Below are positions 4,310 through 21,593 of a stretch of DNA of 33,640 nt, piece by piece (positions within the stretch are counted from its first letter, which is position 1; every line of letters begins with the position of its first letter). The position numbers and the translations under genes are program-made. The notes under the pieces are model-generated. The model was not told the DNA's origin, ran no database searches, and was given only the letters and a program-made list of their open reading frames with translations. Origin of the DNA: a virus; the UHGV virus genome UHGV-0206080. One strand, given 5' to 3'.

Positions 4310-5527
4310 ATGAAACTTCATGAGATGAAGCAAAAACGAAACACCATTGCAAAGGATATGCGTGCACTGCATGAAAAAATTGGTGATAACGCATGGACTG
4401 ATGAGCAGCGGGCAGAGTGGAACAGGGCGAAAGCTGAGCTGGATGCGCTGGATGAGCAAATCGCCCGTGAAGAAGAGTTGCGCCGTCAGGATCAGGAATA
4501 TGTGGATGAGTCCGGGCCGGAAGAGCGCCAGAATAATGAGGCGGAGAACGGGAAAAAGGCGGTGGAAGAGAAGCGCGCTGCGGCATTTAACCGTTTTCTG
4601 CGTGCCGGATTTGCAGAACTGAATGCTGAAGAGCGTAATCTGATGCGTGAACTGAGGGCTCAGAGTGTAACAACGGATTCTCAGGGCGGATATACGGTGC
4701 CCACGCAGATGCGTAACAAAATCATTGACACCATGAAGGCTTATGGCGGGATTGCCAGTGTGGCGCAACTTCTGACCACATCAACCGGGCAGGATATCAC
4801 CTGGTCAACGTCTGATGGCACGACTGAAGAGGGCGAACTGCTGGCGGAAAATACAGCCGCAACGGAACAGGATGTGACGTTCGGGACCGCTATTCTGGGG
4901 GCTAAAAAGCTGTCATCAAAAATAATTCGTGTGTCCAATGAGCTGCTCCAGGACAGTGGGGTGGATATTGAATCTTATCTGGCAAACCGTATTGCCCAGC
5001 GTATTGGTCGTGGAGAGGCGAAATATCTGGTTCAGGGGACCGGAACTGGATCACCGTTACAGCCAAAAGGGCTGGCAGCGTCGGTGACGGGAACCATCCA
5101 GACTGCAGCCTCTGCCGCTTTCACCTGGAAAGAAATGAATGCTCTGAAACATGCCATTGATCCGGCATATCGTGGTGGGCCGAAATACCGCTGGGCATTC
5201 AATGATGCCACATTGCAAACTATTGAAGAGATGGAGGATGGACAGAAACGCCCGTTATGGCTGCCGGATATTGCAGGCGGTACGCCAGCTACTGTGCTGG
5301 GGATCCCTTATGTTATTGATCAGGCTATTGACGGGATTGGTACCGGAAAAAAATTCATTTTCCTGGGGGATTTCAACCGCTTTATCATTCGCCGCGTTAC
5401 TTATATGGAACTGAAACGTCTGGTTGAGCGTTATGCTGAGTTTGATCAGGTGGCATTTCTGGCTTTCCATCGTTTTGACTGTGTGCTGGAAGATGTGGCA
5501 GCCATCAAGGCGCTCACTGGAAAATAA
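4310..5527 (+). CDS. Major capsid protein (HK97 family) with N-terminal coiled-coil delta domain
   Basis: 405 aa; charged, heptad-like N-terminus (EQRAEWNRAKAELDALDEQIAREEELRRQ) followed by capsid-fold region; followed by intrinsic terminator. Confidence 0.85.
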   Translation: MKLHEMKQKRNTIAKDMRALHEKIGDNAWTDEQRAEWNRAKAELDALDEQIAREEELRRQDQEYVDESGPEERQNNEAENGKKAVEEKRAAAFNRFLRAGFAELNAEERNLMRELRAQSVTTDSQGGYTVPTQMRNKIIDTMKAYGGIASVAQLLTTSTGQDITWSTSDGTTEEGELLAENTAATEQDVTFGTAILGAKKLSSKIIRVSNELLQDSGVDIESYLANRIAQRIGRGEAKYLVQGTGTGSPLQPKGLAASVTGTIQTAASAAFTWKEMNALKHAIDPAYRGGPKYRWAFNDATLQTIEEMEDGQKRPLWLPDIAGGTPATVLGIPYVIDQAIDGIGTGKKFIFLGDFNRFIIRRVTYMELKRLVERYAEFDQVAFLAFHRFDCVLEDVAAIKALTGK

Positions 5528-7381: not shown

Positions 7382-7552
7382 ATGTTTGTCAAACCTGTTA
7401 AAGGGCGGTCAGTGCCTGACCCTGCCCGCGGCGACCTTTTGCCCGCCGAAGGGCGAAATGTTGACGAGAACAACTACTGGCTGCGCCGTGAAGCAGCGGG
7501 TGATATCCGGCGCGTGAATAAAAAGGTGAACACCGATGACGATAAGCTTTAA
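7382..7552 (+). CDS. Small hypothetical protein (56 aa)
   Basis: ATG 7382 preceded by GAGGA; ends overlapping sheath start; below the ORF-track cutoff. Confidence 0.3.
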   Translation: MFVKPVKGRSVPDPARGDLLPAEGRNVDENNYWLRREAAGDIRRVNKKVNTDDDKL

Positions 7553-9032
7553 CACCATTCCGTCGAATACGCTGGTTCCGCTGTTTTATGCGGAAATGGA
7601 TAACCAGGCGGCGAATACTGCACAGGACAGCGGAGCATCGCTGCTGATTGGTCATGCCAATAACGGTGCAGAGATTGTTGCCAACAGTCTGGTGCTGATG
7701 CCGTCGGCAGACTATGCACGCCAGATTTGTGGTGCGGGAAGTCAGCTGGCGCGTATGGTCGAGGCTTATCGCCAGACTGACCCGTTTGGCGAGCTGTATG
7801 TGATTGCCGTTCCTGAATCCACAGGCGCGGCGGCAACGGTTACGCTGACGGTGACCGGGGAGGCAACCGAAACCGGCACGGTGAATGTTTATGTGGGACG
7901 TACCCGCGTGCAGGCACCGGTGACCAACGGCGATAACGTCGCGACGATTGCCAGCAGTATCAAAGATGCCATCAATGCCGTTCCGACCCTGCCGTTTACT
8001 GCCTCATCTTCGGCAGGCGTGGTCACACTGACCGCGCGTCATAAGGGGCTTTGCGGGAATGAAATTCCTGTCAGCCTCAATTACTACGGCTTTGGTGGGG
8101 GCGAAGTGCTGCCAGCGGGCGTACAGATTGCCGTGGCGACGGGGAACGCCGGAACGGGCGCTCCTGTTCTCACCGGCGCGGTGGCTGCAATGGCGGATGA
8201 GCCGTTTGATTATATCGGCCTGCCGTTCAACGACACGGCCTCCGTTAACACGCTGGTGACCGAGATGAACGATACCAGCGGTCGCTGGAGCTATGCGCGT
8301 CAGCTGTATGGTCATGTGTATACGGCAAAGATCGGCACGCTGTCAGAACTGGTGACCGCAGGTGACCAGTTTAACCAGCAGCACATTACCCTGGCGGGGT
8401 ACGAAAAAGAGACCCAGACGCCTGCCGACGAGCTGGCGGCAAGCCGTACCGCCCGCGCAGCGGTGTTTATTCGCAACGATCCGGCACGTCCCACGCAGAC
8501 CGGTGAGCTGGTGGGTATGCTGCCTGCGCCGAAGGGGAAACGGTTCACGATGACCGAACAACAGACCCTGCTGTCTCATGGCGTGGCAACGGCGTATGTC
8601 GAAAGCGGGGTGCTGCGCATTCAGCGTGATGTCACCACGTACAGGAAAAACGCTTACGGTGTTGCGGATAACAGCTACCTCGACAGCGAGACGCTGCATA
8701 CCAGCGCGTATGTGCTGCGCAAACTGAAATCCGTCATTACCAGTAAGTACGGGCGTCACAAGCTTGCCAGCGACGGTACCCGCTTTGGTCCCGGTCAGGC
8801 GATTGTCACCCCGGCGGTGATCAAAGGGGAACTGCTGGCAACCTACCGTCAGCTTGAGCGTGCGGGGATCGTGGAAAACTACGAACTGTTTAAGCAGTAC
8901 CTGGTTGTGGAGCGTGATGCCAGCGATCCGAACCGCCTGAACACGCTGTTCCCGCCTGACTATGTTAACCAGTTGCGTGTCTTTGCCGTGGTTAACCAGT
9001 TCCGTCTTCAGTATTCAGAGGAGTCTGCATAA
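7536..9032 (+). CDS. Tail sheath protein (Mu gpL-like)
   Basis: 498 aa; immediately followed by a 118-aa tube gene with start/stop overlap. Confidence 0.8.
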   Translation: MTISFNTIPSNTLVPLFYAEMDNQAANTAQDSGASLLIGHANNGAEIVANSLVLMPSADYARQICGAGSQLARMVEAYRQTDPFGELYVIAVPESTGAAATVTLTVTGEATETGTVNVYVGRTRVQAPVTNGDNVATIASSIKDAINAVPTLPFTASSSAGVVTLTARHKGLCGNEIPVSLNYYGFGGGEVLPAGVQIAVATGNAGTGAPVLTGAVAAMADEPFDYIGLPFNDTASVNTLVTEMNDTSGRWSYARQLYGHVYTAKIGTLSELVTAGDQFNQQHITLAGYEKETQTPADELAASRTARAAVFIRNDPARPTQTGELVGMLPAPKGKRFTMTEQQTLLSHGVATAYVESGVLRIQRDVTTYRKNAYGVADNSYLDSETLHTSAYVLRKLKSVITSKYGRHKLASDGTRFGPGQAIVTPAVIKGELLATYRQLERAGIVENYELFKQYLVVERDASDPNRLNTLFPPDYVNQLRVFAVVNQFRLQYSEESA

Positions 9033-9388
9033 TGGCCCGTATCGGGGGAACCTGTTATTTCAAAATTGACGGTCAGCAGCTATCGCTGACCGGCGGCATT
9101 GAGGTGCCCATGAACAGGACGGTAAATGATGACATCATCGGCCTGGACGGTTCAGTGGACCGCAAGGAAACTCACCGTGCACCTTATGTCAAAGGGACCT
9201 TCAAGGTGCCGAAGAATTTTCCGGTGAGCAAAATCACCTCGTCTGATGAGATGACCATCACTGCCGAGCTGGCGAACGGTCAGGTCTATGTATTGTCGTC
9301 TGCCTGGCTGCACGGTGAAGCGAACCATAATGCCGAAGAAGGCACGGTTGATCTTGAGTTCCACGGTGAAGAAGGGGATTACCAGTGA
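9032..9388 (+). CDS. Tail tube protein (Mu gpM-like)
   Basis: 118 aa; ATG overlaps sheath stop; canonical sheath-tube order. Confidence 0.75.
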   Translation: MARIGGTCYFKIDGQQLSLTGGIEVPMNRTVNDDIIGLDGSVDRKETHRAPYVKGTFKVPKNFPVSKITSSDEMTITAELANGQVYVLSSAWLHGEANHNAEEGTVDLEFHGEEGDYQ

Positions 9389-9708
9389 TTGAGCTTGTAC
9401 TTAAAAAACCGATCATCGCCCACAAAGAAACACTGCATGTGCTGGAAATACGTGAGCCTACGTATGACGAGATTGAGGCGCTGGGGTTCCCTTTCTCTGT
9501 TTCGCCTGATGGTGGTATGAAAATGGACAGTCAGGTGGCGCTGAAATATATCCCGCTTCTGGCCGGGATCCCGCGCTCGTCTGCAGCGCAGATGACGAAG
9601 CTGGATATTTTCAAGGCAGGCATGATTGTAATGCGTTTTTTTACCGGCTTGGAGACGGAAGAGACCTCCGGAAGCGATTCTACAATGTCGCGTGGTTCTG
9701 GAAATTAA
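9385..9708 (+). CDS. Tail assembly chaperone, with predicted -1 frameshift extension to 9800
   Basis: 107 aa ORF between tube and tape measure; T7 slippery run at 9636-9642; -1 frame stays open for 52 codons and ends at the tape measure start. Confidence 0.6.
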   Translation: MIELVLKKPIIAHKETLHVLEIREPTYDEIEALGFPFSVSPDGGMKMDSQVALKYIPLLAGIPRSSAAQMTKLDIFKAGMIVMRFFTGLETEETSGSDSTMSRGSGN

Positions 9709-9792
9709 ACCCCCTTGAACTTCGCAGGACGGCTATTTCCCACTTTGCTGATCTGGAGGCAGAGGCCGTCCGTATAAATGAGGAGATGAAGC

Positions 9793-11694
9793 ATGGCTGA
9801 TAATTTTCAGCTGAAAGCCATCATCACCGCCGTTGACAGGCTGTCCGGCCCGCTTAAAGGTATGCAGCGTCAGCTTAAGGGGTTTCAGAAAGAAGTCTCC
9901 AGCCTTGCTCTGGGCGCTGCCGGGGCGGGTACTGCAATAATGGGGGCACTGGCACTCCCTGTAAAATCAGCCATCACCCTTGAATCGAAGATGGCTGATG
10001 TCCGCAAAGTGGTGGACGGTCTGGATACGCCGGATGCGTTTAAGGCCATGACGGAGCAGGTACGCGCTTTGTCTACTGAGCTTCCCATGTCTGCAGACGG
10101 GATCGCGGAAATTGTGGCGGCTGGCGGTCAGGCCGGGATTGCACGTGATGAACTGATGCAGTTTGCCACTGATGCGGTGAAGATGGGCGTGGCCTTTGAT
10201 ACCACGGCTGAAGAGTCCGGGCAGATGATGGCCCAGTGGCGTACTGCGTTTAATATGACGCAGGATGAAGTGGCTGGGCTGGCTGACAAAATCAACTACC
10301 TTGGTAATACCGGCCCGGCGAATGCGAAGAAAATCTCCGATATTGTTACGCGTATTGGTCCTTTAGGTGGTGTTGCAGGTGTGGCTTCCGGCGAAATCGC
10401 GGCAATGGGGGCAACCATTGCCGGGATGGGCGTGGAGTCAGAAATTGCCGCCACAGGGATCAAGAACTTCATGCTTTCCCTGACCGCGGGAAATTCAGCG
10501 ACAAAATCGCAGAAACAGGCATTACGTTTTCTGCGGATCAATCCGAAGAAATTAGCTGCTGATATGCAGAAAGATGCCCGGGGAACCATGCTGTCTGTAC
10601 TGGATGCGATGGCTAAAGTGCCTAAAGAAAAACAGGCAGCTGTGCTGAATGCCCTGTTCGGGAAAGAGTCTCTGGGCGCGATAGCACCTCTGCTGACTAA
10701 CCTTGATTTGTTGCGTACCAACTTCAGGCGGGTTGCGGATTCCCAGCAGTATGGCAGTTCGATGCAGAAGGAATATGCTTCGAGGGCAGCGACGACGGAA
10801 AACCAGCTTTTACTTCTGCAAAATCAACTTGATGCCATTTCTTCCACTCTGGGGGAAACGTTTCTTCCTGAGGTTAATGATGGTCTTGAAGCGGTAAAAC
10901 CGCTCCTTGAGGAAGTGAGAACGTTTGTCCGTGAAAACCCGGAGCTCGTTAAGACCATTGCTAAAATCGGTCTGGCTTTACTGACAGTGGGGGCCGCTGC
11001 AGGCTCTTTGTCCAGAATCATGAAAGTTCTCGGCGGTGTGATGAATATGACGCCTGCTAAGGGTCTGATTGCTCTTCTGGTCGGTGCCGCTTACCTCATT
11101 ATTGATAACTGGGAAACCGTAGGTCCTGTCATAAAAAAAGTCTGGCGCGTGGTGGATGAAACGGCGCAGGCGATGGGGGGATGGGAAACTGTTCTGAAAG
11201 CGATCGCCCTGTTTATGACAACCAAATGGGTTGCTGACGTTACCAAATCCATTACCGCAGTGACCAGAGAGATGCGTACGCTGGGGAAGGTGTCGGCAGA
11301 AACGGGATTGATGGGGAAAGGCCGCGGCTTTATCGGGAAGGCCGGGGTATATGGTTTTCTGGGAACCCTGATGTATGAGCCGGTTAAAGATACTCTGGAA
11401 AGTGTTGTTCCTGAAGATACAGTTAACTGGCTGGATAATAAAGGGCTGTTTCTGGCTTCAGACTGGACGCCTTTTTTTGATCGTAAAGAGTACGAGCAGT
11501 ATCAGGCCAGCCTGAGTCAGTACAAACCCAATGTTCCGCTGTTGAATCCATCTTCTTCCATGACACAGCACAGCGAACTGAAAGTCACGTTCGAGAATGC
11601 TCCGCCAGGCATGAAGATAATTGATGTACCGGGCAAAGCCGATCCCCTGATGAAAATCACGCACGATGTGGGGTATTCTCCATTCAGGCGATAA
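9793..11694 (+). CDS. Tail tape measure protein
   Basis: 633 aa; Ala/Gly-rich with hydrophobic segments; position after chaperone. Confidence 0.85.
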   Translation: MADNFQLKAIITAVDRLSGPLKGMQRQLKGFQKEVSSLALGAAGAGTAIMGALALPVKSAITLESKMADVRKVVDGLDTPDAFKAMTEQVRALSTELPMSADGIAEIVAAGGQAGIARDELMQFATDAVKMGVAFDTTAEESGQMMAQWRTAFNMTQDEVAGLADKINYLGNTGPANAKKISDIVTRIGPLGGVAGVASGEIAAMGATIAGMGVESEIAATGIKNFMLSLTAGNSATKSQKQALRFLRINPKKLAADMQKDARGTMLSVLDAMAKVPKEKQAAVLNALFGKESLGAIAPLLTNLDLLRTNFRRVADSQQYGSSMQKEYASRAATTENQLLLLQNQLDAISSTLGETFLPEVNDGLEAVKPLLEEVRTFVRENPELVKTIAKIGLALLTVGAAAGSLSRIMKVLGGVMNMTPAKGLIALLVGAAYLIIDNWETVGPVIKKVWRVVDETAQAMGGWETVLKAIALFMTTKWVADVTKSITAVTREMRTLGKVSAETGLMGKGRGFIGKAGVYGFLGTLMYEPVKDTLESVVPEDTVNWLDNKGLFLASDWTPFFDRKEYEQYQASLSQYKPNVPLLNPSSSMTQHSELKVTFENAPPGMKIIDVPGKADPLMKITHDVGYSPFRR

Positions 11695-11723
11695 TAACCC
11701 TACTTTAATCAAGTAGGGTTATT
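11693..11723 (+). repeat. Perfect 13-bp inverted repeat (AATAACCCTACTT / AAGTAGGGTTATT) with 5-nt spacer
   Basis: Read directly from the sequence just after the tape measure stop; no T-run follows. Confidence 0.7.
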
Positions 11724-11758
11724 GAGTGGTAAAGTTTGTGCTGAATGTAGGAGAGAAT

Positions 11759-12247
11759 ATGAAGAAAATGTTTATATTGTTGTTGGCTGCAGGACTGCCA
11801 TTAAACTCCTTTGCGAAGCCAGTAACGGAAAAGCAGCTTGCTACATACTTTATAGATAACGTTAAAACTTCAGCAGATAAGAATATAGATCTAGATGTAG
11901 GTGGAATAAATAGACTGTCTGTAATATGCCCAGCAAAGTCGGCAAGTGGAACTCTTTTAATAAAAAAAGCATCCTACGAGTTTAATAAAGGTATTGGTGT
12001 TTTTGATTTTGAAAATAACTCACAATCTGCACCATTGGCTTTTATTGTACCAATTAGTGAGGATGAAAATAACTTTGACTCGGAAATTATTGGTTTCTCT
12101 TTTGCATTTAAAATGCCAAGAGGGCAATTCTTTGTTGATGTTACGAAATCAGGGAAGGTAAAGGCTGGCGTAAATATTAGTGGTGAAAGCGGAATTACTT
12201 ATTCATCATGTAGAATAGATACTCATAATGTTGATTATGATCTTTAA
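11759..12247 (+). CDS. Secreted hypothetical protein (moron) with N-terminal signal peptide
   Basis: ATG 11759 with AGGAGA RBS; MKKMFILLLAAGLPLNSFA signal-like N-terminus; strongly AT-rich relative to flanking tail genes; own terminator. Confidence 0.6.
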   Translation: MKKMFILLLAAGLPLNSFAKPVTEKQLATYFIDNVKTSADKNIDLDVGGINRLSVICPAKSASGTLLIKKASYEFNKGIGVFDFENNSQSAPLAFIVPISEDENNFDSEIIGFSFAFKMPRGQFFVDVTKSGKVKAGVNISGESGITYSSCRIDTHNVDYDL

Positions 12248-12261
12248 TTTTATTACCTAAT

Positions 12262-12290
12262 AAAAAACCGCGTTTACACGCGGTTTTTAT
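12262..12290 (+). terminator. Rho-independent terminator after moron (A-run, stem-loop, T-run)
   Basis: AAAAAACCGCG-TTTACA-CGCGGTTTTTA. Confidence 0.7.
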
Positions 12291-12303
12291 TTGAGGTGAC
12301 ACC

Positions 12304-13677
12304 ATGGATTTTTCTCATATTTCTTCGTACCTATCCTCTAATTCTCGAAGTGGCTGGCGTGAAAAGCTACTTGAAGCATCATTTCGAGGTGTGCCGTTTA
12401 AGGTTGAAGAAGAAAGTGCGGGAACCGGTCGCCGTGTGGAAACACATGAATACCCGAACCGCGACAAGCCTTATACCGAAGATCTGGGAAAAGTCACTTT
12501 CCGCCCGTCCATCACAGCTTATGTGGTGGGAGATGACTGCTTTGACCAGCGCGATCGCCTGATTGACGCGCTGAATAAACCCGGTCCCGGCACGCTTGTC
12601 CATCCGACATACGGTGAGATGAAAGTCTGTGTTGACGGGGAAGTTCGGGTCAGCACATCGAAAAGTGAAGGGCGTATTGTCCGCTTTGACCTGAAGTTTG
12701 TCGAAGCGGGAGAACTCTCTTACCCCACATCAGGTGCGGCGACGGCGCAGACGCTGATGTCATCCTGTTCTGCACTGGATGACTGCATCAGTGACAGCTT
12801 CAGCGGTTTCAGTATCGATGGCGTGGCGGATTTCGTGCAGAACGACGTTATCGGTAATGCCAGCATAATGCTGGGGTATGTTTCTGATGCGATGAAAGTG
12901 GTGGATTCTACCGTATCGGATGCCGCCAGGCTGTTGCAGGGGGATATCTCGGTACTTCTGCCGCCGCCATCGTCAGGCAAAAATTTCGTTGAGCAGGTGC
13001 AGAAAATGTGGCGTACCGGGAAACGCCTTTATGGTAACGCCAGCGACCTGGTCACCATGATCAAAACGTTTTCCGGTGTCAGCCTCGGCAGCGATCTGCA
13101 ACCGCGCGGCGTCTGGAAAACGGACAGTAAAACCACCGCCACGGCTACGCAGCAGCGTAACGTGGTTGCCAGCACCCTTCGTACGACCGCAATCAGCGAA
13201 GCGGCGTATGCCGTCACGCGATTGCCTGCGCCAACAACTTCCGCGGTGATGCAGAATTCCGCAGTGGGGCAGGCAACAACACCCGCGCAGAGCACTGGCT
13301 GGCCTGCCGTCACGCATCCGGCACTGAACAATGCACCGGCGGTGAAAAACACGGTTGACCTGCCGACGTGGGAAGAACTGACTGACATTCGCGACACACT
13401 GAATACGGCAATTGATAAGGAGTTGTCCCGTACAACCAGTGATGCGCTGTTTCTGGCGCTGCGCCGGGTGAAAGCAGATCTGAATGCGGATATCAACACG
13501 CGCCTTGAACAGTCTGCACGGATCATTCAGCGCACACCGGATGAGGTTTTACCCGCGCTGGTGCTGGCGGCGACCTGGTTTGATAACGCGGCGCGTGACG
13601 CGGACATTATCCGGCGTAATGCCATTACGCATCCCGGCTTTGTGCCGGTGATCCCTCTGAAGGTGCCAGTGCAATGA
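12304..13677 (+). CDS. DNA circulation protein (Mu gpN-like)
   Basis: 457 aa; position after tape measure in a Mu-like tail cluster. Confidence 0.7.
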   Translation: MDFSHISSYLSSNSRSGWREKLLEASFRGVPFKVEEESAGTGRRVETHEYPNRDKPYTEDLGKVTFRPSITAYVVGDDCFDQRDRLIDALNKPGPGTLVHPTYGEMKVCVDGEVRVSTSKSEGRIVRFDLKFVEAGELSYPTSGAATAQTLMSSCSALDDCISDSFSGFSIDGVADFVQNDVIGNASIMLGYVSDAMKVVDSTVSDAARLLQGDISVLLPPPSSGKNFVEQVQKMWRTGKRLYGNASDLVTMIKTFSGVSLGSDLQPRGVWKTDSKTTATATQQRNVVASTLRTTAISEAAYAVTRLPAPTTSAVMQNSAVGQATTPAQSTGWPAVTHPALNNAPAVKNTVDLPTWEELTDIRDTLNTAIDKELSRTTSDALFLALRRVKADLNADINTRLEQSARIIQRTPDEVLPALVLAATWFDNAARDADIIRRNAITHPGFVPVIPLKVPVQ

Positions 13678-20594: not shown

Positions 20595-21593
20595 TTCAGG
20601 TAACGGGACATCAAGTGTTGGTGAAACTTTAACCTTCCTGTCATAGATTAGCACTTGCCCTTCGGTTTTGTGACCAGAGAAAAGTTGCTTATCCCGACTG
20701 CTTCCTTCATAGTCTGAAATTCCTTTCGCCTTCAGATCATGAAAGGTGAAGTCGGTTAAAATACCTGAAATTTTGCCTGCGCGATTTCTTGCTTCTACCC
20801 ACATTTCGTTAAAGCCTTTGTACATATATCGGTTGCCGTATTGATTGCTGATTACATAGGCGGATGTTGGTAACTGTTTTGCTTTTTCGATCGCCGCCTG
20901 TAATCGTGGACTCCATGCTTTTATCTGTTTTTTCCCTGTTTTCCCTTGCTGGATAAAGATCCCGTCGTTTCCAATCTGCTCCCATTTCAGCGATAACACA
21001 TCGGAAACCCTCGCTGCACACAGATAGGCAATTTCCATTGCGATAAAAACAGGAAGAGGTGCAACGCTTAATACTGCCTGGTATTCTTTGTCGGTTACAT
21101 ATCGTTCGCGGTTTTTGGCCTTGAATTTACTTACACCTGCACATGGGTTAGCCTTCACGTACCCTCGCTCATATCCCCAACTGTAAACGCGGGACATACT
21201 GCTTTTTTCATGGTTGGCTTGCGTTTTGCTCTGTTCCCCTCTTTTGTCCATGTATCGACGGATGTGTTCTGGTTTTATGGAATCCGCTGGTACCTTACCG
21301 AATACGGCAAGCAACTTTTTTTGATGTTGCAGATAATCTTTTTGTGTTCTTGGGCTAAGGTCACTGTAACAGGCGCTGGCGAGGAATTTTTCCCACAAGC
21401 GACCGAATGTCATTGCACGATCGCGATTATTTACAGTTTCCTCATACTTTTTCCATAAAGCAGCTAAACCATCCTTGATGGCGGTTAGTGTTACAGATTC
21501 TCTGGATGTTGGTTTCCATACATAACTATATTTATTTGGGTATACATTTGGAGGTAATTTTTCGTGTTCAGGATTTTTCCTTCGTCTTCCCAT
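20568..21593 (-). CDS. int: Tyrosine integrase (lambda Int-like)
   Basis: 341 aa; C-terminal catalytic region ...RVSDVLSLKW...FHDLKAKG...GHKTEGQVLIYDRK with Tyr nucleophile; adjacent to attP. Confidence 0.9.
   Translation of the reverse strand: MGRRRKNPEHEKLPPNVYPNKYSYVWKPTSRESVTLTAIKDGLAALWKKYEETVNNRDRAMTFGRLWEKFLASACYSDLSPRTQKDYLQHQKKLLAVFGKVPADSIKPEHIRRYMDKRGEQSKTQANHEKSSMSRVYSWGYERGYVKANPCAGVSKFKAKNRERYVTDKEYQAVLSVAPLPVFIAMEIAYLCAARVSDVLSLKWEQIGNDGIFIQQGKTGKKQIKAWSPRLQAAIEKAKQLPTSAYVISNQYGNRYMYKGFNEMWVEARNRAGKISGILTDFTFHDLKAKGISDYEGSSRDKQLFSGHKTEGQVLIYDRKVKVSPTLDVPLPENIPRQYSK

Follow-up and report, generated by a model that had tools for sequence, protein, structure and literature searches.

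Here, we examined a predicted programmed -1 frameshift in the tail assembly chaperone gene of the virus genome UHGV-0206080, a stretch of 33,640 nucleotides (nt) that is referred to below, in its whole length, as the window. Our analysis suggests, with a probability that we put at about 85%, that ribosomes shift back by one base on the heptamer U_UUU_UUU of this gene, which would thus give rise to two chaperones, a product of 107 amino acids (aa), denoted G, and an extended product of 138 aa, denoted GT. The feature is real and of a long-known kind, the G/GT-type tail chaperone frameshift of long-tailed phages, reportedly described by Xu, Hendrix and Duda in 2004, and it is unannotated in the records that we examined.

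The chaperone gene is located between those encoding the tail tube (PF10618) and tape measure (PF10145) proteins, the position typical of G/GT-type systems. It starts with a GTG that overlaps the stop codon of the tube gene and ends, in the 0 frame, at TAA 9706–9708 (the coordinates of the features are collected in Table 1). The encoded protein matches Phage_TAC_7 over residues 5–86, with a score of 32.1 bits against a cut-off of 25, as well as PHROG 166 (E = 1.3e-25); the title of the Pfam entry, PF10109, reads "Phage tail assembly chaperone proteins, E, or 41 or 14". The chaperone domain ends precisely at the Phe-Phe slip codons, where the heptamer lies in the proper X_XXY_YYZ register of the chaperone frame, CG[T TTT TTT] ACC. 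Following a -1 slip, the next codon read is UAC (9642–9644), and the frame remains open for 52 codons, translated as YRLGDGRDLRKRFYNVAWFWKLNPLELRRTAISHFADLEAEAVRINEEMKHG, up to TGA 9798–9800, 7 nt past the tape-measure ATG at 9793, so that it spans the entire 84-nt gap (9709–9792) between the chaperone stop and this ATG. The GT fusion, obtained by joining 9385–9642 to 9642–9800, accordingly consists of 86 + 52 = 138 aa, with the junction ...MRFF-YRLGDG...EEMKHG, and the peptides specific to the extension (hereafter T) include FYNVAWFWK, LNPLELR and TAISHFADLEAEAVR. Thus, the original prediction, which was made from the letters of the window, had correctly placed the heptamer in register within the chaperone ORF (open reading frame), the 52-codon open -1 frame and its end just inside the tape-measure start, the filling of the apparently non-coding gap and a fusion of roughly 138 aa.

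The GT stop and the beginning of the tape-measure gene overlap (ATGGCTGA), and the GAGGAG Shine-Dalgarno sequence of that gene is embedded in the final codons of the T extension, where the conserved ...INEEMKHG end is encoded. As in other G/GT-type arrangements, the second ORF overlaps the first one (9642–9708) in a different frame and has no start of its own. Indeed, between 9510 and 9785, the -1 frame contains no ATG, GTG or TTG, and its sole start codon is the ATG at 9786, which precedes the stop by four codons. Past the slip site, three stops within 45 codons close the +1 frame.

Comparison with relatives showed that this arrangement is conserved. A tblastn search with the 138-aa fusion yielded two-frame matches covering at least 80% in 28 phage records, the lowest identity, 33.6%, being that to Pseudomonas phage DVM-2008. 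Twelve of the 28 records were examined (SfIV, 720R4, phiP27, ST64B, F1055, 689R6, SfV, YeP2, AH07, EPP-1, DVM-2008 and 118970_sal3), and all 12 carry T_TTT_TTT or T_TTT_TTC at the same codons; except for 118970_sal3, they encode an extension of 52–54 codons that stops 0–10 nt into the tape-measure gene. In Salmonella phage 118970_sal3 (NC_031940, 7871–8269), the 0 and -1 frames are fused by a deletion of 1 nt, about 40 nt past the slip site, resulting in the aberrant 132-aa 'tail protein' of this record; the deletion is probably a sequencing or assembly error, or else a mutation in one of the two copies present in the 77-kb record. Bacterial genomes were searched with only the N-terminal 80 aa, that is, the part upstream of the site, so that retrieval was blind to the slip site. 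All 26 loci recovered in this search, from as many species-level representatives, possess the heptamer and a -1 ORF of 51–54 codons; they come from Shigella, Escherichia, Mixta, Buttiauxella, Erwinia, Pantoea, Leclercia, Mangrovibacter, Lonsdalea, Atlantibacter, Edwardsiella and Yersinia, and from a metagenome-assembled genome (MAG) of Rhodocyclaceae. Relatives were also sought with alignments of the subgroups, and the IMG/VR matches for the subgroup of phage SfV, which are about 99% identical to one another, added little.

All 33 distinct sequences have the same six-T core, and only T or C occurs as the seventh base (T6 followed by C in 9 of the 33), so that a slippery sequence of the form T_TTT_TTY is preserved, in register and within the overlap, in the entire set, as is usual for the G/GT type. 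This invariance extends over two synonymous third positions, one in the codon before the Phe pair (Arg, Asn, Ser, Gly or Pro) and the other in the first Phe codon itself, whereas at other degenerate third positions near the site the majority base has a frequency of 0.33–0.76. The 0-frame tail past the slip site varies from 3 to 22 codons among the relatives, and a 0-frame stop shortly after the site is retained in every lineage. The extension itself displays the conserved motif Y-x-x-A-x-[FY]-W-[KR]-x-N-P...A-x-R-I. Alignment with related phages, proposed along with the original prediction as a means of checking it, therefore came out in its favor, with both the heptamer and a -1 ORF of 51–54 codons present in all 33 distinct sequences.

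Selection at the protein level was assessed from the ratio of nonsynonymous to synonymous differences (pN/pS), calculated by the Nei–Gojobori method in ungapped comparisons of 11 sequences that share the geometry of the window. In the gap, past the 0-frame stop, the -1 frame has a pN/pS of 0.26, compared with 1.87 in the 0 frame and 1.90 in the +1 frame; in the overlap, the values are 0.48 for the -1 frame and 0.94 for the 0 frame; and in the body of the chaperone gene, the 0 frame gives 0.36. Substitutions in the gap number 227, 194 and 706 at the first, second and third codon positions of the -1 frame, respectively. The pN/pS of 0.26, together with this excess at third positions, implies that the gap 9709–9792 encodes protein in the -1 frame. 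Over its last 21 residues, the 0-frame protein is under essentially no constraint. The extension is thus a selected and conserved protein sequence, as seen both from pN/pS and from the 28 phage records matched by tblastn, and the purifying selection on the -1 frame, combined with the lack of an independent start, supports the assignment of the frameshift to the G/GT type in the original prediction.

One element of that prediction, a potential stem 2–3 nt downstream of the heptamer, fared differently. The strings of which the stem was to be built exist (CCGG 9644–9647, GGAG 9651–9654, CTCC 9666–9669 and CCGG 9668–9671), but CTCC and the second CCGG share two bases, so that the nested helix is impossible as drawn, and neither its stability nor its conservation held up. 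The best fold of 9643–9680, at -7.4 kcal/mol, is less stable than shuffled sequences are on average (-8.95 kcal/mol; z = +0.69), and longer segments compared with their shuffles likewise show no excess stability (z = +1.30 and +0.29). RNAalifold predicted 0 pairs among 19 relatives of the window's own subgroup and, in the SfV subgroup, just two short helices with a net energy of -4.36 kcal/mol and an unfavorable covariation term. For the two helices named in the prediction, 56.6% and 36.8% of the cells can pair, compared with 55.2% and 35.2% in shuffled sequences, and there is no covariation. The stable and conserved stem-loop or pseudoknot 5–9 nt downstream of the site that characterizes the structure-stimulated class of frameshifts, of the dnaX, IS (insertion sequence) and coronavirus type, was not found. 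A Shine-Dalgarno-like stimulator upstream of the site was considered as well and rejected: AGGCAGG, which lies 14–20 nt upstream in the window, is not conserved in the relatives. It appears that, as in phage P2, no cis-acting RNA structure is needed for the shift.

The -1 frameshift of P2, from gpE to gpE+E', reportedly described by Christie et al. in 2002 (cited in PMC3091744), takes place on T_TTT_TTG in the FETUD tail operon, and the P2 RefSeq record annotates E as a product of 91 aa and E+E' as one of 142 aa resulting from a "-1 frameshift". The similarities with the window are many. In both phages, the tail is contractile, the gene is located between those for the tube (FII in P2) and the tape measure (T in P2), and the chaperone domain belongs to PF10109 (47.8 bits for P2 E+E', 32.1 for the window). 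In both, the slip occurs at the end of the domain, at ...VVGF followed by L in P2 and at ...RFF in the window, and translation of the long form ends 7 nt into the tape-measure gene. The two products measure 91/142 aa in P2 and 107/138 aa in the window. A -1 slip on T6N at the domain end and a product that ends just inside the tape-measure gene, which mark the P2 family, are thus found in the window too. Furthermore, a downstream hairpin is missing from P2-like phages (PMC3091744), as it is from the window. The differences lie in the last base of the heptamer, which is G in P2, T in the window and C in the SfV subgroup, and in the 0-frame tail after the site, which is longer in the window (21 codons). 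We class the element among the G/GT-type frameshifts, its chaperone domain being P2-E-like.

Other recoding systems share some, but not all, of these properties. As outlined in PMC5009743, G/GT-type frameshifting is widely conserved among long-tailed phages with double-stranded DNA genomes, being mostly -1, with a shift of -2 in Mu and of +1 in some phages. In lambda, as in the window, a chaperone and its frameshift-extended form, gpG and gpGT, are encoded between the major tail and tape-measure genes, the lambda products being made in a fixed ratio (PMC5009743), about 30:1, by a -1 shift at G_GGA_AAG, but the tail is that of a siphovirus, the protein family is another one and so is the slippery sequence. 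Mu gp41 is named as a member in the description of PF10109, and the window carries Mu-like sheath, tube and DNA-circulation genes; however, gp41 has 144 aa, there is no T run at its site, and the shift is reported to be of -2 into the +1 frame (PMC5009743). A Mu-like -2 shift is excluded in the window by the three stops in the +1 frame, and it is the conserved -1 frame on which selection acts. The dnaX gene of Escherichia coli, also from an enterobacterial host, resembles the window in tandem -1 slippage on an X_XXY_YYZ heptamer but has, on either side of its A_AAA_AAG, a Shine-Dalgarno sequence (upstream) and a stem-loop (downstream), whereas no conserved stimulators were found in the window, and the shifted product is shorter in dnaX and longer in the window. 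A sequence search of the PDB with the family profile returned just a spurious match (E = 0.22).

Thus, we propose that, during translation of the late tail operon, the majority of ribosomes would stay in frame up to TAA 9706–9708 and produce the 107-aa G, while a minority would pause with tRNA-Phe in both the P and the A site on U_UUU_UUU, where both tRNAs could slip one base back and re-pair perfectly. The slipped ribosomes would then read UAC 9642–9644 and the rest of the 52 codons until UGA 9798–9800, yielding the 138-aa GT. On the model of lambda gpG/gpGT and P2 gpE/gpE+E', the tape measure protein would be coated by the N-terminal domain common to both forms, and the tube protein would be recruited by the rare T extension, with the tube and then the sheath polymerizing to the right length; as in these phages, both chaperones would depart before the tail is completed. 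In lambda, both products attach to the tape measure protein, and the major tail protein is bound by the T part (PMC5009743). Neither gpG nor gpGT is present in mature lambda virions (PMC5009743), so that mass spectrometry of virions, suggested with the original prediction, would be a poor test, and infected or induced cells would be needed instead. Termination of GT within the start region of the tape-measure gene, ATGGCUGA, and the location of the Shine-Dalgarno sequence inside T codons may reflect translational coupling of the two genes.

Several considerations weigh against this interpretation. For the phage of the window, the evidence for the shifted protein is indirect, and the pattern in the window by itself is not statistically unusual: 13% of the in-frame codon positions in its long stop-to-stop ORFs have a -1 frame that stays open for 52 codons or more, and these ORFs contain 84 in-frame X_XXY_YYZ heptamers. 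The significance of the frameshift thus comes from its conservation in relatives and not from the single sequence. In synthetic E. coli constructs, U_UUU_UUU is far less prone to shifting than A_AAA_AAG (PMC5009743), and, because the heptamer is weak and no stimulator is evident, a low efficiency is expected, probably only a few percent. The relationship to P2 is loose at the sequence level. PF06528 (Phage_P2_GpE), which gives 76.3 bits with P2, had no hit at E ≤10 among four extensions of the group; BLASTP detected no similarity between the fusion and P2 E+E' (E = 15); and although a profile of 8 fusions is colinear with P2 E+E' across both parts (E = 1.4e-4), the probability of this match is only 52%. 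Judging by these comparisons, the extension may be a distant homolog of P2 E', but this is unproven. Elsewhere in the window, other in-frame T_TTT_TTY heptamers followed by a -1 frame open for 35–59 codons occur in long stop-to-stop ORFs, at 21203 and 23207 on the + strand and at 4378, 26996 and 11138 on the - strand, several of them in antisense ORFs that are probably not genes.

A further point against ribosomal slippage is that RNA polymerase, by adding an extra U on the T7 run, could generate a messenger from which standard translation would produce the same RFF-YRLG... fusion, the product of a one-base insertion being identical to that of a -1 frameshift. The site is a pure homopolymer, slippage of bacterial polymerases on A/T runs is known (PMC5009743), and the run is mutable in DNA, with T8 alleles in some assemblies. 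We nevertheless regard transcriptional slippage as unlikely. Efficient slippage in bacteria has been described at runs of about 9 (PMC5009743), compared with 7 here; the run is only T6 with a C next to it in 9 of the 33 relatives, and T6 with a G in P2, yet the architecture is the same, which fits the X_XXY_YYZ rule of tRNA re-pairing better than a rule of run length; and the strict conservation of the register of the run is a requirement of ribosomal but not of polymerase slippage. The T8 alleles also bear on the very improbable scenario in which the true gene is contiguous and T7 represents a sequencing error or an inactivating mutation in a decaying prophage. The exact 138-aa fusion is indeed called as a contiguous gene in a few T8 assemblies, and an ST64B-type fusion on about 20 contigs. 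However, T7 or T6C is found in 33 of 33 distinct relatives from many genera, every one of whose lineages keeps the 0-frame stop; IMG/VR contigs with the exact site of the window comprise 78 with T7 and 0 with either T8 or T6; and the region is 100% identical to the window in 12 of 12 complete E. coli genomes among the matches listed. The two T8 cases in E. coli are megabase-scale contigs, one of them from the assembly UGCZ01, in which a homopolymer error would be plausible if they derive from long reads.

Some annotation pipelines have treated the -1 ORF as a small gene in its own right, which would be translated through reinitiation or from a start of its own: in the record of phage 689R6, the equivalent ORF stands as a hypothetical protein apart, and the extension alone matches PHROG 32181 (E = 4.5e-6), a family of separately called ORFs. 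This solution hardly seems tenable, given the lack of start codons described above, the onset of the -1-frame protein constraint at the slip site, inside the overlap, and its failure to explain the conservation of the heptamer and its register. Finally, the gap could be a non-coding spacer or regulatory region in which the -1 frame is open by chance, an idea to which the chance level given above lends some weight. We consider the probability of such a coincidence negligible. The codon periodicity is strong and the low pN/pS is confined to the -1 frame, conservation of the extension as a protein reaches down to about 34% identity, none of the 33 relatives has stops scattered through the -1 frame, a promoter and terminator scan of the gap gave no match on the + strand, and a scan of 9300–9950 against Rfam gave no match either.

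The T8 alleles deserve separate mention. The ST64B-type T8 fusion, a contiguous called gene of 139 aa exemplified by 'Sb15' (WP_001676089.1), occurs on contigs many of which were assembled from public sequencing runs, and may be a real allele. The T8 prophage of the ST64B type is found in particular in Salmonella Dublin-like assemblies, with the T run at about 852–862 of the respective loci (L125–L131). The T8 assemblies include UGCZ01, JANHPG01, AHUK01 and those from the ERR114995xx runs. The mutation of ST64B known from the literature lies in sb21/sb22 and not in sb15, and is distinct from the programmed site described here. It is conceivable, if improbable, that the T run serves both as a ribosomal slip site and as a mutable switch, with the T8 alleles hard-wiring the GT fusion. 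If these alleles are real and functional, or if stuttering of the polymerase on T7 is appreciable, the G:GT ratio would be set by a mixture of replication, transcription and translation slippage on one homopolymer, and changes in run length could switch the tail production of prophages on and off.

The window represents an SfIV-like phage or prophage whose contractile-tail module is of the Mu/P2 type and in which, besides sheath and tube, the DNA-circulation gene (PF07157) is Mu-like. The region 9032–9900 is 99.1% identical to Shigella phage SfIV and Escherichia phage vB_EcoM-720R4, and 74–77% identical to phiP27, ST64B and their relatives. Part of this region is matched in 1081 of 5426 complete E. 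coli genomes, with at least 80% of the query covered in 211, and 122 records match it at 99% identity or more. The tube gene is labelled as tail tube protein in the SfIV and E. coli RefSeq records.

Table 1. Features of the window around the tail assembly chaperone gene
Feature	Coordinates	Strand	Details
Sheath gene	7536–9032		PF04984, PF17482, PF17481
Tail tube gene	9032–9388	+	118 aa; Pfam PF10618 Tail_tube, E = 2.4e-33; directly 5' of the chaperone gene
Tail assembly chaperone gene	9385–9708	+	0-frame product G, 107 aa; Pfam PF10109 Phage_TAC_7
Slippery heptamer T_TTT_TTT	9636–9642	+	P-site codon 9637–9639 and A-site codon 9640–9642, both Phe
-1-frame extension T	9642–9800	+	52 codons + TGA, by translation; accessible only through the shift
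Proposed downstream stem	9644–9675	+	not supported as a functional part
GAGGAG Shine-Dalgarno sequence of the tape-measure gene	9779–9784	+	read from the sequence; 8 nt upstream of ATG 9793
Tape measure protein gene	9793–11694	+	633 aa; Pfam PF10145 PhageMin_Tail, E = 2.2e-42

A mosaic boundary is apparent at 9385. Up to the end of the tube gene, phages SfV, SfI and SfII share about 96% identity with the window, and this identity collapses where the chaperone gene begins, the fusion proteins being about 42% identical. The chaperone and tape-measure genes have thus been exchanged as one unit between the window and these phages, in agreement with the SfIV genome paper, in which ORF-12 and ORF-13 are less than 50% identical to their counterparts in SfI, SfII and SfV. 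Downstream, between the tape-measure and DNA-circulation genes, lies a low-GC island (11650–12400, with a GC content of 0.31–0.39 compared with about 0.5–0.58 in the flanks). It contains an ORF of 173 aa (11726–12247, + strand) that has a signal-peptide-like N-terminus, MKKMFILLLAAGLPLNSFA, and no Pfam match, and that has the look of an accessory ('moron') gene acquired by insertion.

In the phage and RefSeq records examined, the frameshift is nowhere annotated, the listing of the SfV type in Xu et al. 2004 lying outside this comparison. The GenBank and RefSeq records that we inspected give only the 107-aa product and leave the 84-nt "gap", and the SfIV genome paper treats ORF-12 as hypothetical and never mentions frameshifting. 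The finding brings nothing conceptually new for recoding or tail assembly, and its main value lies in annotation, for a type of prophage that is common in E. coli. The GT product completes the tail-assembly gene set of the group including SfV, SfIV, ST64B and phiP27, and links the chaperone of this group to the P2 E/E+E' type rather than to the -2 type of Mu, despite the Mu-like sheath and tube genes.

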